60,220 nucleotides of DNA from an uncultured Candidatus Saccharibacteria bacterium (GTDB taxonomy: Bacteria > Patescibacteriota > Minisyncoccia > Phycocordibacterales > UBA2135). Numbering within the stretch: the stretch's first letter is position 1; each line of letters begins with the position of its first letter. Below the pieces are notes generated by a model that saw only the letters and a list, made by a program, of their open reading frames with translations, did not search any database and was not told the DNA's origin. Below are positions 7,754-60,220 of the stretch, piece by piece. The DNA lies in contig CAYGCZ010000002.1 in NCBI GenBank assembly GCA_964348495.1, positions 8,588 to 68,807 of the forward strand. Reading direction: 5' to 3'. A program made the translations under genes and the position numbers.

Positions 7754-8179
7754 ATGGAAATCATCATCAATCACTACGCGGTCATCGTGGCCGCCATCTC
7801 GAGCATTGTTATGGGCTCACTCTGGTACGGTCCCCTCTTCGGTAAGCAGTGGATGGCGCTTATGGGCTTTACTCAAGAGCAGATGGAAGCAGCAAAAAAG
7901 AAGGGTATGACAAAGAGCTATCTTTTTGCTCTCGTCGGCTCCTTCCTCACAGCATATGTGCTCGCCTATGCAATCGCATTTACCAATACACTCTTTGGTA
8001 CGCAAGGCGGGGTGATTGGCATCACCGTTGGTTACTTCGCATGGCTCGGCTTCGTCGTCCCCGCATCTTTGAGCACCGTCTTGTGGGAGGGGCGGCCGTG
8101 GAAGCTCTTCTTCCTCAACATCGGTTATTACCTCGCGCTCTTTGTCGTGATGGGAGCAATCCTCGGCGCGTGGATGTAG
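7754..8179 (+). CDS. DUF1761-family membrane protein
   Basis: An N-terminal SLWYGPLFGKQWMALMG motif and four hydrophobic segments. Confidence 0.7.
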   Translation: MEIIINHYAVIVAAISSIVMGSLWYGPLFGKQWMALMGFTQEQMEAAKKKGMTKSYLFALVGSFLTAYVLAYAIAFTNTLFGTQGGVIGITVGYFAWLGFVVPASLSTVLWEGRPWKLFFLNIGYYLALFVVMGAILGAWM

Positions 8180-8182
8180 TAG

Positions 8183-8250
8183 AGAATGTAGAATTTGGAA
8201 TATAGAATATGGAGAATATCGGCCGCATCGCTTCGCGATGCGGCCGATAT
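8183..8250 (+). repeat. REP/MITE-like element copy A: AGAATGTAGAAT motif plus a perfect 16-bp hairpin
   Basis: It starts 4 nt after the stop codon of the DUF1761 gene. The hairpin ATATCGGCCGCATCGC-TTC-GCGATGCGGCCGATAT spans 8216..8250 and has no U-tract. Confidence 0.8.
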
Positions 8251-8366
8251 TTGCGGGACATGCTTCAGAGAAAGAACCTATCATACCTTTTCCGCGCAGT
8301 TCTGCAACACGTGATCATATTGCAGAAGCAAGAACGATATAAACGTGTGATATACTGCCAACATGG

Positions 8367-8404: not shown

Positions 8405-8515
8405 CGGAGTGATGTAGAAACGTGATATACTGCCGAAAAAGATAACAATCAAATTTGCAGGCACAAGAAAAATTAACCAATGAGCTTATAGAGATTATCA
8501 AAAAGAAGATTTGAT

Positions 8516-13147: not shown

Positions 13148-13184
13148 CATGGTACTTCATACTTCCTACGTCATACTTTATACT
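13148..13184 (+). promoter_or_regulatory. Conserved upstream box (homologous to 42981..43014) ending in TATACT, 7 nt from ATG 13192
   Basis: 29 of 40 ungapped identities with the smc upstream region. Contains CATACT, ATACT and TATACT. Confidence 0.5.
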
Positions 13185-13191
13185 TAAGGGC

Positions 13192-42079: not shown

Positions 42080-42188
42080 CGCCGACAGCCGGTTTTGTTT
42101 ATCAGTTCATCATGTACGCAAATTGCGGAATAGCATATGACCGTCGGTCACTGACATTCCATAGTTTGTGTCATACATAATACGTTGT

Positions 42189-42884
42189 ATGCACAGTAAT
42201 TTCTCTGATTTTGAGCACAAGGTCGGCATCACCTTCGCCGACAAAAAACTTTTGCGCCAGGCATTCCTCCATCGCTCGTATCTCAACGAGCATCCCGACG
42301 AAGAGTCGGGGCACAACGAGCGTTTGGAATTTCTCGGCGACGCCGTTTTGGAGCTCGTCGTAACCGACTTTCTCTACAAGGCCTACCCCGACAAGACGGA
42401 GGGCGACCTTACCGTGTATCGCGCCGCCATGGTCAACACCAACAGCATCTCCGATGCCGCGCATGCTCTTGGCATGAACGACTACCTCCTTCTCTCCAAA
42501 GGTGAGGCAAAGGACACCGGCAAGTCGCGCAGTTATATCCTCGCCAATACCTTCGAGGCCTTTATCGGCGCCGTGTATCTCGACCGAGGCTACGATGCCG
42601 CGCAGGCATTTATCGCGCGGATGCTCTTCGACAAGGTGGATGCTATTGTGAAGGGCCGCCTTTGGCAGGACGACAAGAGCCGCTTCCAAGAAAAGGCGCA
42701 AGAGGTTCGCGGCATCACGCCCGCATACCGCGTGCTCAAAGAAGATGGCCCCGACCACGACAAGACCTTTACCGTCGGCGTCTTCCTCAATGAGGAACAG
42801 TTTGGCGAGGGGAATGGTCACTCCAAACAAGATGCCGAACAACACGCCGCCCACGATGCGCTCGCAAAGACGGGGTGGAAGTAG
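42189..42884 (+). CDS. rnc: Ribonuclease III
   Basis: NERLEFLGDAVLELVV signature and a C-terminal dsRBD. Confidence 0.92.
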   Translation: MHSNFSDFEHKVGITFADKKLLRQAFLHRSYLNEHPDEESGHNERLEFLGDAVLELVVTDFLYKAYPDKTEGDLTVYRAAMVNTNSISDAAHALGMNDYLLLSKGEAKDTGKSRSYILANTFEAFIGAVYLDRGYDAAQAFIARMLFDKVDAIVKGRLWQDDKSRFQEKAQEVRGITPAYRVLKEDGPDHDKTFTVGVFLNEEQFGEGNGHSKQDAEQHAAHDALAKTGWK

Positions 42885-42895
42885 ATGGGGAATTT

Positions 42896-42960
42896 TAGAA
42901 TGTAGAATATAGAGAATATAGCCGCCGCAAAAAATCGCCGAGGAGCGATTTTTTGCGGCG
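42896..42960 (+). repeat. REP/MITE-like element copy B: TAGAATGTAGAATAT motif plus a perfect 16-bp hairpin
   Basis: It lies 12 nt after the rnc stop codon. The hairpin CGCCGCAAAAAATCGC-CGAGGA-GCGATTTTTTGCGGCG spans 42923..42960 and has no trailing U-tract. Confidence 0.8.
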
Positions 42961-42980
42961 CACACCGGCGTGGTCGTCGC

Positions 42981-43014
42981 CACACTTCATACTTACTTCG
43001 GAATACTCTATACT
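42981..43014 (+). promoter_or_regulatory. Conserved upstream box ending in TATACT, 6 nt from the smc ATG
   Basis: Homologous to 13151..13184. Confidence 0.5.
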
Positions 43015-43020
43015 ATAGGT

Positions 43021-45312
43021 ATGTTGTTGAAGCGTCTCGAGCTCTCCGGTTTTAAGTCCTTCGCCCGTCCCACGACGCTTGATTTCACGACGCCCGTTAC
43101 GGCGATCGTCGGTCCCAACGGCTCCGGAAAATCAAACATCTCCGAGGCGATCCGCTTCGTGCTCGGTGAGCAATCCATGAAGTCTCTGCGCAGTAAGCAG
43201 AGCGAAGATCTTATCTTCAATGGCACCAAGGACGCCGCCCGCTTGAACCGCGCGAGCGTCGCCATAACCTTCGACAACCGTTCGCGCATCTTGCCGATAG
43301 ACTACGACGATGTGGAGGTGAAGCGGGACATCTACCGCGATGGGCAATTTTTGTATTACATAAACGGCGAAAAGGTTCGCCTTAAAGACATTGTGGAGCT
43401 CCTCTCCGCCGTCAATATCGGTATCTCAAGCCATCACATCATCTCGCAAGGCGAGGCCGATCGCATTCTCGCCGCATCTCCCAAGGAGCGGCGGATCATG
43501 ATCGAGGATGCTCTCGGTCTGCGCGCCTACTACCACAAGAAGAACGAAAGTACGCGTAAACTCGCAAAGACCCGAGAGAATGTCGCCAAGGTAGAATCCT
43601 TGCGCCGCGAACTCGCTCCCCATCTGCGCTTCCTGGAAAAGCAGGTTCAAAAGATACAAGAGGCGCGGGAGCTCAAGGCCGATCTCGTCGTCCGCTGTCG
43701 CGAATACTTTAAGATCGCCGACGCCCTCATCCGCCATGAGCGCGAGCATCTCGCGCGCGAGCGTTCCGCCCCCGTTCTCGCCCTTGCCGGCATTGAGGGC
43801 GAGATCGCCGAGAAGGGTCGCACCCTCGCCGAGATGGAGGCGCGCGAGCACAAGAGCGACCGCGTCGCCGCGTTGGAGGTGGCTCTCAAAGAGGCGCAAG
43901 ATCGCAAGGACGATCTCTCCCGCACCCTCGGGCGGCTCGAAGGCATGTACGAGTATGAAGAGCGGCGCATCCGCGAGGAGGAGGCGCGCCGCGAAGAGGC
44001 GCGGCAAGCCGCCGACAGACCCGTCTCCGTGCCGCTCTCCGCGTTGCGTTCGTTCATCGGCTCTCTGCGCGCACTCGTCGCCGAGGCCGAGAGCGCGTCG
44101 CTCCTTGATGCGGTCAAGAGCGTACTTCTGCGCGTACGCGAGACCGCCGACATGTTCGATGTGCGCTATGGTTCTCAAGGGGCACAAAGCGCCGAGGAAG
44201 CTTTGCAGGAGATATCGCGTGAAGCACTCGAACGTATCGGCGCGCAAAAGCACGACGCAGAAGAGCGATTACGCACAGCACAGGACGATGAGCACTCCTT
44301 GTATGCACAGTATCGCACGGCAAAAGATACCGTAGAGGAGGGCCGCAGTGCCGCGCGTCTTTTAGAGCGTGAGATATTCACCCTGCGCGAGGAGCGCGGG
44401 CGGCTCGTCGCACGCGTGGGCATGCTCGATGCCCACGACGAGCGCCTGCGCAGCGAGGAGGAACGCCTCATGACCGAGCGCACCGATGCGGCGCATCTTT
44501 TGGGCGTGCATGTTCTCCACGACGACGCATCCGCGCCGCCCGTTACAATCGATCGTGCCGACGAGGTGCGCTCTGCGCAGGAAGATCGCCGCCGCACCAT
44601 TGAACGCATGAAGATGAAGGTCGAAGATATGGGCGGGGGAGGCGAGGAGATCATAAAAGAACATAAGGAGACGATTGAGCGCGACTTGTACCTCGTGCGC
44701 GAACTCGACGATCTTGCGCACAGTATCGCATCACTCACGACACTCATCGACGAGTTGGGTGAAAAGATACGGAGCGAGTTTGCCGCCGGCGTCGCCTCCA
44801 TCAATGTCCGTTTCCAAGAGCTTTTTGCCGCCATGTTTGAAGGTGGCGGTGCCTCTCTTGCTACAATCGCACTGCAAAAGCGCGTACGAGGCGGCGAGGA
44901 ACTTATGGGCGGTGAAGGTGAGGAGGGCGAAGAGGAAGATGCGGCCGAGGAGGTGTCGGAGGAGGGTGTTGAGATTGCCGTCACCCTGCCACACAAGCGG
45001 TTGAAGGGTATGCATATGCTCTCGGGCGGCGAGCGAGCGCTCACTTCAATCGCACTCATTTTTGCCGTAACTCTCGTGCACCCGCCACCGTTTATCGTCT
45101 TGGACGAGACCGATGCCGCACTCGATGAATCCAACGCGCGCAAGTACGGCCTTATGGTAGAGCGCATCTCCGGCACAACGCAATTCATCATCATCACGCA
45201 CACGCGCGAAACGATGGCGCGCGCTCAGGCACTCTATGGCGTAACCGCGGCCGCAGACGGCATCTCGCGCCTCCTCTCCATCAAATTCGACGAAGCCGCC
45301 CGTATCGCTTAG
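43021..45312 (+). CDS. smc: SMC-like chromosome segregation ATPase, unusually short (763 aa)
   Basis: N-terminal head MLLKRLELSGFKSF..GPNGSGKSNISEAIRFVLGEQS, and a C-terminal head with LSGGERALTSIAL and FIVLDETDAALD. No hinge-like segment is visible by eye. Confidence 0.8.
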   Translation: MLLKRLELSGFKSFARPTTLDFTTPVTAIVGPNGSGKSNISEAIRFVLGEQSMKSLRSKQSEDLIFNGTKDAARLNRASVAITFDNRSRILPIDYDDVEVKRDIYRDGQFLYYINGEKVRLKDIVELLSAVNIGISSHHIISQGEADRILAASPKERRIMIEDALGLRAYYHKKNESTRKLAKTRENVAKVESLRRELAPHLRFLEKQVQKIQEARELKADLVVRCREYFKIADALIRHEREHLARERSAPVLALAGIEGEIAEKGRTLAEMEAREHKSDRVAALEVALKEAQDRKDDLSRTLGRLEGMYEYEERRIREEEARREEARQAADRPVSVPLSALRSFIGSLRALVAEAESASLLDAVKSVLLRVRETADMFDVRYGSQGAQSAEEALQEISREALERIGAQKHDAEERLRTAQDDEHSLYAQYRTAKDTVEEGRSAARLLEREIFTLREERGRLVARVGMLDAHDERLRSEEERLMTERTDAAHLLGVHVLHDDASAPPVTIDRADEVRSAQEDRRRTIERMKMKVEDMGGGGEEIIKEHKETIERDLYLVRELDDLAHSIASLTTLIDELGEKIRSEFAAGVASINVRFQELFAAMFEGGGASLATIALQKRVRGGEELMGGEGEEGEEEDAAEEVSEEGVEIAVTLPHKRLKGMHMLSGGERALTSIALIFAVTLVHPPPFIVLDETDAALDESNARKYGLMVERISGTTQFIIITHTRETMARAQALYGVTAAADGISRLLSIKFDEAARIA

Positions 45313-58761: not shown

Positions 58762-60063
58762 ATGGTAAAACAAATTCTAAAATCCATCGTCGTTTTCATC
58801 CTCACTCTTGAGGCGCGTATCGTTCTGTGGAAGTATCGGCCCACGATCATCGCCGTTACGGGCAGTGTGGGCAAGACTACGGTCAAAGATGCGATTGTGT
58901 TTGCCTTGTCCAAATCTTTTTTTGTACGAGGAAGTGCCAAGAGTTTCAACAGCGAGTTGGGCGTGCCACTTACCGTGCTCGGCTGTGAGAGCGGAGGATG
59001 GGAGAGTGTGCGAGCATGGCTCTCCATCATTGGAGAAGGGCTGGCACTCATTGCTTTTCAGAACCATTATCCGAAGGTGCTTGTGGTTGAAGTAGGTACC
59101 GACAAACCCGGCGATATCGCTCGCATCACAAGATGGCTCAAGCCGAATGTTGCGGTGGTAACGCGCGTTGGCGATGTTCCCGTGCATGTCGAGTTCTTCT
59201 CTTCTCGCTCAGAGCTCATCGCCGAGAAGGGCAACATCGTCGGAGCTCTTAAAGCAAACGGTATCGCGGTATTGAGTGCCGATGATCCCGATGTCATCTC
59301 AATGCGCACGAGAGCTCCGTATGCCAAAATCTTTACCTACAGCATGACAGGGTCGGCGGATGTGACGGGGAGTGATGCGGATCTGTTCTACAGCAAAGAA
59401 GGTGTTCCGATGGGTGTCGAGTGTGTCGCGACCTACGCCGGTGAGAATGCTCCGCTTATCATCAAAGGGACGGCGAATTTTTCCGCTCTGCATGGCGCGT
59501 TGGCGGCGTGTGCTGTTGCAATCGTACTCGGTGCGCCCTTTCAAGAGACGGTGCGCGCTTTTGAGTCGTTTACAGTTCCCAAAGGTCGCTCGCGTCTCAT
59601 CGAGGGTATCCGTGGGTCGATTATTATAGACGACACTTACAATGCATCGCCCGCGGCAGTCGCCGCCGCCTTGGATGCCTTGGGGCGTATTGATACCGGA
59701 GGAAGAAAGATCGCCATTCTCGGCGATATGCTTGAACTTGGCAAACATAGCGTTGAGGCGCACAAAAAGATGGGTGTGCATGCTTCCGAGGTCGCCGATA
59801 TTCTTATTACCGTCGGGCTTCGTTCCGAGGTTGCGGGAGCCGAGGCGGAGCTCTGCGGTATGTACAAAGAGGATGTACATCACTTTACCGACTCCGTCGC
59901 GGCGGGAGAGTTCTTGAAGATGGTCGTCAAAGATCACGATGTCGTCTTGGTCAAAGGTTCCCAGCGCGTTCGCATGGAGCGCATCGTCGAGCGGATCATG
60001 GCTCATCCTGAACAAAAGCACAATCTCCTTGTACGACAAGAGGAGGCGTGGCAAGATCGTTAG
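58762..60063 (+). CDS. murF: UDP-N-acetylmuramoyl-tripeptide--D-alanyl-D-alanine ligase
   Basis: VTGSVGKTT P-loop and a Mur ligase C-terminal domain with DDTYNASP. Confidence 0.85.
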   Translation: MVKQILKSIVVFILTLEARIVLWKYRPTIIAVTGSVGKTTVKDAIVFALSKSFFVRGSAKSFNSELGVPLTVLGCESGGWESVRAWLSIIGEGLALIAFQNHYPKVLVVEVGTDKPGDIARITRWLKPNVAVVTRVGDVPVHVEFFSSRSELIAEKGNIVGALKANGIAVLSADDPDVISMRTRAPYAKIFTYSMTGSADVTGSDADLFYSKEGVPMGVECVATYAGENAPLIIKGTANFSALHGALAACAVAIVLGAPFQETVRAFESFTVPKGRSRLIEGIRGSIIIDDTYNASPAAVAAALDALGRIDTGGRKIAILGDMLELGKHSVEAHKKMGVHASEVADILITVGLRSEVAGAEAELCGMYKEDVHHFTDSVAAGEFLKMVVKDHDVVLVKGSQRVRMERIVERIMAHPEQKHNLLVRQEEAWQDR

Positions 60064-60165
60064 AATGTAGAATAGGGAATATAGCCGCGAGCACGGCTTG
60101 CGCAACGACAAACGCGACCGCCTATGGCGGTCGCGTTTGTTCTACATTTCATATTCTACATTCTA
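60061..60165 (+). repeat. REP/MITE-like element copy C: two inverted TAGAATGTAGAATA motifs flanking a perfect 15-bp hairpin
   Basis: The left arm at 60061..60074 overlaps the murF stop codon, and the right arm at 60152..60165 is its exact reverse complement. The central hairpin ACAAACGCGACCGCC-TAT-GGCGGTCGCGTTTGT spans 60108..60140. Confidence 0.8.
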
Positions 60166-60220
60166 GAGTTAAGTAAGATTTCGTGGAGGTTTTCACCCCC
60201 GTTTTGACGCAAGAAAATAC

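Follow-up and report, generated by a model that had tools for sequence, protein, structure and literature searches.

What occupies the gaps behind several genes in the 60,220-nucleotide (nt) stretch analyzed here (the window), which belongs to an uncultured Candidatus Saccharibacteria bacterium, and why do perfect hairpins of unrelated sequence stand there beside the same short motif? The preliminary description of the window had drawn attention to a 12-mer, AGAATGTAGAAT, at three gene ends (copies A, B and C), and had likened copy C, at 60061-60165, to a TA-inserting miniature inverted-repeat transposable element (MITE) or a repetitive extragenic palindromic (REP) element. What is conserved among these loci is the trinucleotide TAG recurring at 7-nt intervals, in short arrays that point toward hairpins. 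We consider it an even call whether A, B and C are members, devoid of an open reading frame (ORF), of a Patescibacteria-wide class of heptad-armed hairpin spacers, which would resemble the intervening sequences (IVSs) of ribosomal RNA and would be carried in transcripts, closing all reading frames and folding away.

The repeated 12-mer and the TAG heptad

The assembly that contains the window (G000) comprises 770 kb in 31 contigs, with a G+C content of 52%. Within the window, AGAATGTAGAAT is found at 8183, 42897 and 60062 on the plus strand and at 60153 on the minus strand, i.e., four times against 0.22 expected from shuffles of the window (n = 100), none of which reached four. The second block said to follow it, GAATAT(A/C)G(C/G)CCGC, was confirmed in all three copies. 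The genome-wide search that the preliminary description had called for returned only five exact copies of the 12-mer, four of them in the window. The motif does recur as claimed, but it is not the conserved unit: AGAATGTAGAAT is two units of a period-7 array, and just one flavor of a pattern whose constant feature is TAG at 7-nt spacing.

The periodicity is strict. In this genome, three successive GAAT at period 7 occur eight times, and never at any other period from 4 to 12. When all 64 trinucleotides were scanned without bias for period-7 recurrence, TAG came first by a wide margin, with 35 occurrences of TAG-N4-TAG-N4-TAG against 0.4 expected; at periods of 5, 6, 8, 9 and 10, TAG triplets numbered between 0 and 2. 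Similarly, 400 kb scanned of G005, an independent genome of the same family with a G+C content of 42%, contained 93 period-7 TAG arrays, with 0.3 expected. TAG is the rarest trinucleotide, yet its enrichment at period 7 is 85- to 300-fold, and the other stop triplets, TAA and TGA, are not equivalent to it.

By strict definition there are 28 arrays in this genome, three to six units long. Their dominant flavor is TAGTGAA/TAGTGGA; others are TAGGGTT, TAGCCAC and the flagged TAGAATG, and degenerate units commonly have GAG, AAG or CAG in the place of TAG. Flavors cluster locally, as the distribution of the 12-mer illustrates, and the elements of the atp operon are all of the TAGTGRA type. A perfect (TTAGGGT)x3-4 array at C18:13779-13806, which looks like a plant-type telomere, represents the TAGGGTT flavor; it adjoins a terminator-like hairpin, 11 nt from a start codon.

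Of the 61 genomes of the order, 39 contain arrays of the form (TAG-N4)x4, as do 81 of a phylum-wide sample of 151 genomes; counts reach 284 per genome and are mostly low for a reversed-pattern control. The remaining 22 genomes of the order (about 36%) have no array at all.

Convergent arms, hairpins and the three window loci

The arrays have a fixed polarity relative to hairpins. In this genome, 9 of the 28 arrays are followed within 40 nt (3' side) by a perfect hairpin of at least 11 bp, and none is preceded by one (5' side); random intergenic placement of the arrays gave a mean of 1.3 hairpin neighbors and a maximum of 6 in 500 trials. When a pair is defined as two arrays on opposite strands within 150 nt, pairs are convergent without exception (5:0 here and 14:0 in G005, 19:0 together), so that both strands read TAG arm, core, CTA arm. 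In the architecture that we propose, an arm would be a short tandem array, 5'-(TAG-N4)n-3', with a near-invariant TAG, always reading toward the central hairpin, so that two-armed copies would converge on both strands and form a single long stem when folded.

In G005, the core is an AT-rich loop of 10-19 nt and the arms pair at 5-6 of the 7 positions of each unit, whereas the core in the present genome, of higher G+C content, is often a unique, perfect GC hairpin. Across the whole of the latter there are 254 perfect hairpins with stems of at least 11 bp, or approximately one per three genes. Two of these are runs of N and not real, and many of the others have the form AAAA-stem-loop-stem-TTTT, i.e., they are bidirectional terminator-like palindromes.

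The features of the three window loci are collected in Table 1. The array of copy A starts 3 nt past the stop codon (8177-8179) of a DUF1761 gene (PF08570), and this copy would have retained only the stop-proximal arm and the hairpin. The 5' arm of copy B opens with the stop codon of rnc (42168-42884), which encodes RNase III, in phase with the array. Its degenerate 3' arm holds a promoter-like site, TTCATA-17-TATACT, and stops just short of the ATG of smc (SMC_N) at 43021. In the predicted fold of copy B (-44.8 kcal/mol, z -3.3), this arm pairs with the 5' arm, which places the rnc stop codon opposite a CUA ending 6 nt ahead of the smc AUG. As for copy C, 60061-60165 makes up all the DNA that separates murF from a convergent gene for a PfkB-family kinase (PF00294); this gene continues on contig C7, and the spacer can be seen whole because the end of contig C2 and the start of C7 were rejoined via a shared 8-bp sequence. 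The first TAG of its right arm is the kinase stop codon. The whole spacer is predicted to fold as one stem on either strand (-58.5 kcal/mol, z -10.9), thereby forming a stem around an insert as in an IVS-like cassette.

Table 1. Coordinates of the features under discussion; positions given without a contig are those of the window.
Feature	Position	Strand	Details
Copy A, one-armed heptad array	8182..8216	+	GAGAATG TAGAATT TGGAATA TAGAATA TGGAGAA; period-7 signal
Copy A, perfect 17-bp hairpin	8215..8251	+	AATATCGGCCGCATCGC-TTC-GCGATGCGGCCGATATT, no U-tract; -32.9 kcal/mol, z -4.9
Copy B, 5' arm	42882..42925	+	TAGATGG GGAATTT TAGAATG TAGAATA TAGAGAATA TAGCCGC
Copy B, perfect 16-bp GC hairpin	42923..42960	+	hairpin scan, folding
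Copy B, degenerate 3' arm	42961..43020	-	minus-strand NAG at period 7
Copy C, left arm	60061..60084	+	TAGAATG TAGAATA GGGAATA TAG; first TAG is the murF (Mur ligase) stop codon
Copy C, small inner hairpin	60083..60098	+	AGCCG-CGAGCA-CGGCT
Copy C, perfect 15-bp GC hairpin	60108..60140	+	hairpin scan, folding
Copy C, right arm	60138..60165	-	TAGAATG TAGAATA TGAAATG TAGAACA (minus strand)
ACATTCTA, 8-bp target-site duplication of the insertion sequence that splits the copy C right arm	60158..60165		abuts insertion sequence ends on C2 and C7
End of multi-copy repeat resembling an insertion sequence, terminal 25 nt GAGTTAAGTAAGATTTCGTGGAGGT	60166..60220	+	seven contig ends; outside the heptad element
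TAGTGRA-flavor element, atp operon	C28:372-533		atpG-atpD gap
TAGTGRA-flavor element, atp operon	C28:3952-4032		atpE-atpF gap
TAGTGRA-flavor element, atp operon	C28:4300-4397		atpB-atpE gap
16S rRNA locus examined, G005	G005:C3:326672-328055		L095
16S rRNA locus examined, G013	G013:C4:13272-15499		L094

The perfect hairpins reported for the three loci were recovered, each with a sequence of its own. None of the three stems is followed by a clean U-tract, as had been stated: the sequences behind them are TTGCGGG in copy A, CACACCGG in copy B and TCTACATTTCAT in copy C. Downstream of copy A, two copies of GTGATATACTGCC (8347-8359 and 8422-8434) resemble an extended -10 box (TGnTATACT), the first of them located 3 nt (AAC) upstream of the ATG (8363) of a 20-codon ORF.

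The ends of copy C are exact 14-bp inverted repeats (60061-60074 and 60152-60165), which, together with the GTAG inside the motif and the presence of three Y1_Tnp-like ORFs in the genome, speaks for the earlier view of a TA-inserting MITE with 14-bp terminal inverted repeats, or else of a REP mobilized by a REP-associated tyrosine transposase (RAYT). That view is largely refuted, and we hold it to be extremely improbable. The flanking TA dinucleotides, taken for target duplications, are parts of two TAG stop codons, that of murF and that of the kinase gene, and the supposed 105-bp unit is simply the intergenic spacer. The inverted ends are heptad arrays, which are also found in one-armed copies, and neither copy A nor copy B has a second end to match. 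The three loci do not qualify as copies of one MITE, given their unrelated hairpin cores, and many near-identical full-length copies do not exist in this genome, although G005 copies do share a loop sequence. No imperfect palindrome is common to the loci, as would befit REPs, every hairpin being unique and perfect.

The proposed link to a RAYT was also checked. PF01797 (Y1_Tnp), with three copies in this genome, is absent from the array-rich genomes G005, G038 and G060 and correlates weakly with array count (rho 0.26), and a Y1/RAYT transposase was therefore rejected as the mobilizer. A different palindrome, (GT)AACTCGGCAAATC(A/T)GATTTGCCGAGTT(AC), flanks one of the three Y1 ORFs (C3:28065-28286) on both sides (C3:27770-28540). 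Members of this palindrome family are also found at C1:50510, C3:51427, C4:239 and C25:1813; with the Y1 ORF they form a REP/RAYT-like arrangement unrelated to the heptad arrays.

Among recognized MITEs, those of the Correia/NEMIS and ERIC types are co-transcribed with genes and cut by RNase III. Like the elements described here, they are small, non-coding inserts with inverted repeats that lie at gene junctions and fold in the mRNA. In contrast, they have fixed family sequences, TA duplications and ends derived from insertion sequences (ISs), while the sequence of the heptad elements is free except for TAG at period 7, with no target duplication seen.

An IS is nevertheless involved at copy C. 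GAGTTAAGTAAGATTTCGTGGAGGT is found at seven contig ends, namely that of the window and those of C1, C7, C9, C14, C17 and C21, and two alternative interiors lie behind it, which fits the left and right ends of one IS. The body of this IS is missing from the assembly; the depth of the IS contig, 75.8 against 16.6 for the genome, implies about 4-5 copies. Since the same ACATTCTA stands beside IS ends at the end of C2 and in the reverse complement of the start of C7, it represents a target duplication that joins both contigs. The IS was inserted into the right arm of copy C after the element had formed.

Gene junctions, translation and turnover

The elements fill whole junctions: copy C spans the distance from the murF stop codon to that of the kinase gene, and copy B takes up the stretch that begins with the rnc stop codon and stops just ahead of the smc start. 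Elsewhere in this genome they fill three gaps of the atp operon (atpB-atpE, atpE-atpF and atpG-atpD), and in G005 they fill gaps of the ribosomal protein operon. They share GC-rich stem-loops with intrinsic terminators; the U-tract is lacking, and so is placement at the ends of transcription units. Because they are located inside these operons, they are not simple terminators, which agrees with the initial proposal of a dispersed class of hairpin-forming, non-coding repeats at gene ends. Very probably they are transcribed through. They would thus be transcribed together with their neighbor genes, the TAG arm would close the three reading frames directly behind the ORF, which may be the reason for TAG, and arms and core would fold to a stable stem-loop, so that the insert does not get in the way. 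By analogy with rRNA IVSs, the stem is probably a substrate for RNase III-type processing, or else a structure that protects 3' ends; RNase III is encoded in the genome.

The fit between stop and start codons was established mostly in G005. In 12 of the 19 genes preceded by a CTA arm in that genome, the last CTA lies exactly 5 nt before the ATG, and 8 of 19 stop codons share the phase of the array. The possibility that TAG goes back to duplication of a stop codon was discarded on the grounds that 12 of 19 G005 arrays come after TAA stop codons. Arm sequence in G005 is set by gene polarity, with TAGGCRY behind stop codons and CTAAAGC ahead of start codons. Arrays near start codons, in spacers poor in Shine-Dalgarno (SD) sites, are a feature of G005, and within the window only copy B reaches a start codon. 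At 13152-13187 (C2:21739-21774), a period-7 array, GTACTTC ATACTTC CTACGTC ATACTTT ATACTTA, extends to 7 nt upstream of the ATG that heads a FAD-oxidase/DsbB operon; it is a start-proximal arm in which TAC replaces CTA.

How translation starts in these organisms has some bearing on the role of such arms. SD cores precede 11.9% of the starts in this genome according to our simple gene calls, compared with a background of 14.2% inside genes. The 3' tails of the 16S rRNAs of G005 (GGAACAAUUUCUAAG) and G013 (GGAUUAUUUCAAAUUG) both lack CCUCC, as opposed to that of E. coli (GGAUCACCUCCUUA); these two genomes provide the tail evidence, the 16S gene of the present genome being missing from its assembly. 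The lineage does not use SD pairing. In the genome as a whole, enrichment within 22 nt of start codons is strongest for TATACT and TGCTATACT, and these TATACT-type -10 boxes suggest that leaderless mRNAs are frequent. The TAGAAT repeats are not themselves -10 boxes, as they would fire into the hairpin and real -10 boxes are TATACT-like and beside start codons. Pairing of the arrays with the 16S 3' tail was likewise rejected: only minor flavors (TAGAAAT) are complementary to the G005 tail, and none fits that of G013.

The elements are labile, with rapid turnover. Three G005 elements are missing at the orthologous ribosomal protein junctions of G010, a genome of the same genus, whose spacers there measure 36, 90 and 43 nt and contain no arrays, and other G005 hairpin repeats face gaps of 3-4 nt in G010. 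The atpE junctions of ten other genera contain no array of three units or more, with just two-unit TAG pairs in G036. Arrays thus failed as markers of conserved junctions, both for atpE and for the ribosomal protein operon. The search for empty sites in relatives, suggested at the outset, gave a divided answer, in that G010 has junctions without the G005 elements, but the rest of the spacers does not align and shows no clean footprint. Among the contigs compared, no strain variant or empty site of the present genome was found, only assembly breaks at arrays. The loop sequence GGAAAAAACGATATTCC is common to G005 copies, indicating copying between loci. The elements would arise, spread and decay fast, and be dispensable at any one junction.

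At tandem junctions, the stem may bring a stop codon beside the next start codon, in genomes that do without SD pairing. This role can also be conceived in a different framework, in which the elements are host-selected translational devices that arose in situ: complementary arms would clamp a stop codon to the next start, such that a terminating ribosome unmasks, or reinitiates at, a start without SD, while at operon ends the same structures would act as terminators or stabilizers; they would grow by slippage and not be mobile. The predicted pairing of the rnc stop codon in copy B, the 5-nt distance to ATG and the polarity-dependent arm sequences in G005, the lack of SD enrichment here and of an anti-SD in the G005 and G013 tails, and the presence of elements within the atp and ribosomal protein operons all point that way. 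This account is rather unlikely nonetheless, as there is no start codon downstream of copies A and C that could be coupled, orthologous junctions of the congener G010 function without an element and with gaps of 3-43 nt, the atpE junctions of other genera do without arrays, more than a third of the genomes of the order (see above) lack them altogether, and the conserved loops and the link with a PF05635 cassette (see below) indicate copying between loci.

Fast turnover and a patchy phyletic distribution are also what would be expected if the arrays were neutral debris of replication slippage or of fold-back copying around palindromes, filtered only for not extending ORFs and without RNA function. 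That each locus or neighborhood has a flavor of its own is consistent with this idea, as is an excess of heptamer repeats known in bacteria (PMC4692102). We find it very improbable, because the rarest trinucleotide is the one so strongly enriched, with no equivalent for TAA or TGA, TAG arrays stand behind TAA stop codons and so did not inherit TAG from the stop, chirality is strict (19:0), and the spacing to ATG is fixed at 5 nt.

PF05635 cassettes and kindred repeats

IVSs with an ORF of the PF05635 (S23p) family occur in the 23S rRNA of Leptospira and Coxiella. In many relatives of the present genome, PF05635 (23S-rRNA-intervening-sequence protein, Avd-like) is multi-copy, with up to 8 genes per genome, and in at least 8 of the 12 loci examined the gene is flanked by a TAG arm on one side and a CTA arm on the other. 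An example from G013 reads TAGTTTG TAGTGAG TAGTGGG TAGTGAG TAG, gene, CTACTCA CTACCCA CTACTCA CTA; likewise, the PF05635 gene at G013:C2:84966-85283 falls exactly between arrays that had already been extracted independently of the PF05635 search. Over the 61 genomes, PF05635 copy number is correlated with array count (Spearman 0.56, p 3e-6; Fisher p 0.002). Array-flanked, multi-copy PF05635 genes are found in G054, G050, G013 and G045 (L108, L110, L114, L117), several of them inserted between pilus or secretion-type genes.

Since convergent arms bracket a PF05635 gene in relatives, the flagged copies can be viewed as the gene-less form of an IVS-like cassette, related to it as a MITE is to its parent element, and the behavior of the elements supports derivation from such a larger cassette. 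As neither this genome nor G005 has a PF05635 gene, their elements are ORF-less, and the window copies are at most ORF-less derivatives of the cassette. The likeness to rRNA IVSs lies in the inverted arms, which make a long stem around an insert with or without a PF05635 gene in a host that has RNase III, and in the tolerance of the insert inside a transcript. Unlike rRNA IVSs, the elements described here are located between protein-coding genes and have tandem TAG heptads as arms, the window copies have no ORF, and excision by RNase III can be proposed for them only by analogy.

Another known arrangement with the same spacing is the HutP site of the Bacillus subtilis hut operon, UAG-N4-UAG-N4-UAG. 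It resembles the arrays in having UAG triplets 4 nt apart just upstream of a terminator hairpin, and differs from them in that no HutP homologue is encoded here and the arrays occur at dozens of sites, behind unrelated genes and on both strands. By extension, the arrays might serve as targets of an oligomeric protein that would bind NAG triplets spaced at 7 nt in single-stranded RNA or DNA, with HutP, TRAP, Csp- or S1-type proteins or a pentameric PF05635 protein as models, and that would control termination, processing or mobility at the hairpin. A HutP-like pattern of at least three UAG with 4-nt spacers does stand ahead of the hairpins, each array of three to six units coming strictly before its hairpin on the strand of the array, the common degenerate units are of the NAG type, and array abundance goes with PF05635 copy number. 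In addition, PF05635 proteins are homologous to the nucleic-acid-handling Avd of diversity-generating retroelements; one member of the family is built of five four-helix bundles (PMC10053308). We judge this hypothesis distinctly unlikely, given that arrays exist in this genome and in G005 with no PF05635 gene and that N4 flavors vary widely inside one genome. HutP itself (PF09021) was rejected as the array reader, as it was found in none of the 31 genomes searched, with a positive B. subtilis control.

A bolder proposal, to which we give little credence at present, is that the array-PF05635-array units constitute an unrecognized family of mobile cassettes of Patescibacteria related to rRNA IVSs and to Avd. 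A pentameric four-helix-bundle protein would recognize some five TAG heptads in single-stranded nucleic acid and would promote copying or excision; the hundreds of gene-less hairpins, including the three of the window, would descend from the cassettes in the manner of MITEs and, where the anti-SD tail was lost, would have been co-opted to serve as stop-to-start bridges and 3' stem-loops.

Heptamer repeats have been encountered in other bacteria. The short tandemly repeated repetitive (STRR) sequences of heterocystous cyanobacteria are heptamers, and we know of no TAG rule, obligatory hairpin orientation or cassette link described for them or for heptameric simple sequence repeats (SSRs). Over-represented heptameric SSRs of bacteria (PMC4692102) are, like STRRs, comparable to the present arrays as short tandem heptamers dispersed in non-coding DNA with no explained function. 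TAACTGA direct repeats have been reported from the intergenic regions of marine Beggiatoaceae and of some Cyanobacteria and Bacteroidetes (MacGregor, 2015; PMC4679880). As is the case here, these are tandem 7-nt units in 2-6 copies that lie between genes, a few nt from start codons, are rich in stop codons when read forward, rarely share their spacer with an SD site, and are unexplained as to function (PMC4679880). They are, however, made of one fixed heptamer, in 169 direct sets against a single indirect one, with no predicted structure (PMC4679880). The elements here fix only TAG and the period, come in many flavors (TAGAATG, TAGTGAA, TAGGGTT, TAGCCAC), pair obligatorily and convergently around hairpins, and also follow stop codons. 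No Rfam family matched the elements of the window or of G005, apart from chance miRNA-like hits, and our literature search turned up no account of heptad repeats or terminators from Patescibacteria. The closest phenomena on record are the TAACTGA repeats and cyanobacterial STRRs, both of which lack the convergent-arm, hairpin and TAG-only rules.

Several observations weigh against the interpretation of A, B and C as ORF-less, IVS-like spacers. PF05635 is absent from the present genome and from the array-rich G005, the cassette being tied to their elements only through architecture and correlation. The hairpin cores of the three copies are unrelated, and the arrays could also have grown in situ by slippage beside pre-existing hairpins. 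Single, one-armed arrays are found facing either way with respect to genes, which a role restricted to sense-strand RNA does not predict. The G005/G010 junctions display neither a clean empty-site footprint nor a target duplication. Finally, RNase III cleavage and stop-start coupling are steps that we infer, the sequencing runs found for this genome, G005 and G013 consisting of DNA only.

The genomes of Patescibacteria are tiny, with little spare DNA, yet up to hundreds of spacers per genome obey one strict grammar. Because the 16S rRNAs of the two relatives checked lack an anti-SD, the elements sit where the hand-over of translation from gene to gene needs another solution. In practical terms, the arrays break metagenome assemblies, and they may be misidentified as MITEs, terminators or telomere-like repeats. 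The PF05635/Avd-like link offers a concrete protein candidate, and it suggests a bridge among rRNA IVSs, the accessory proteins of retroelements, and the STRR and TAACTGA repeats that have been unexplained for decades.

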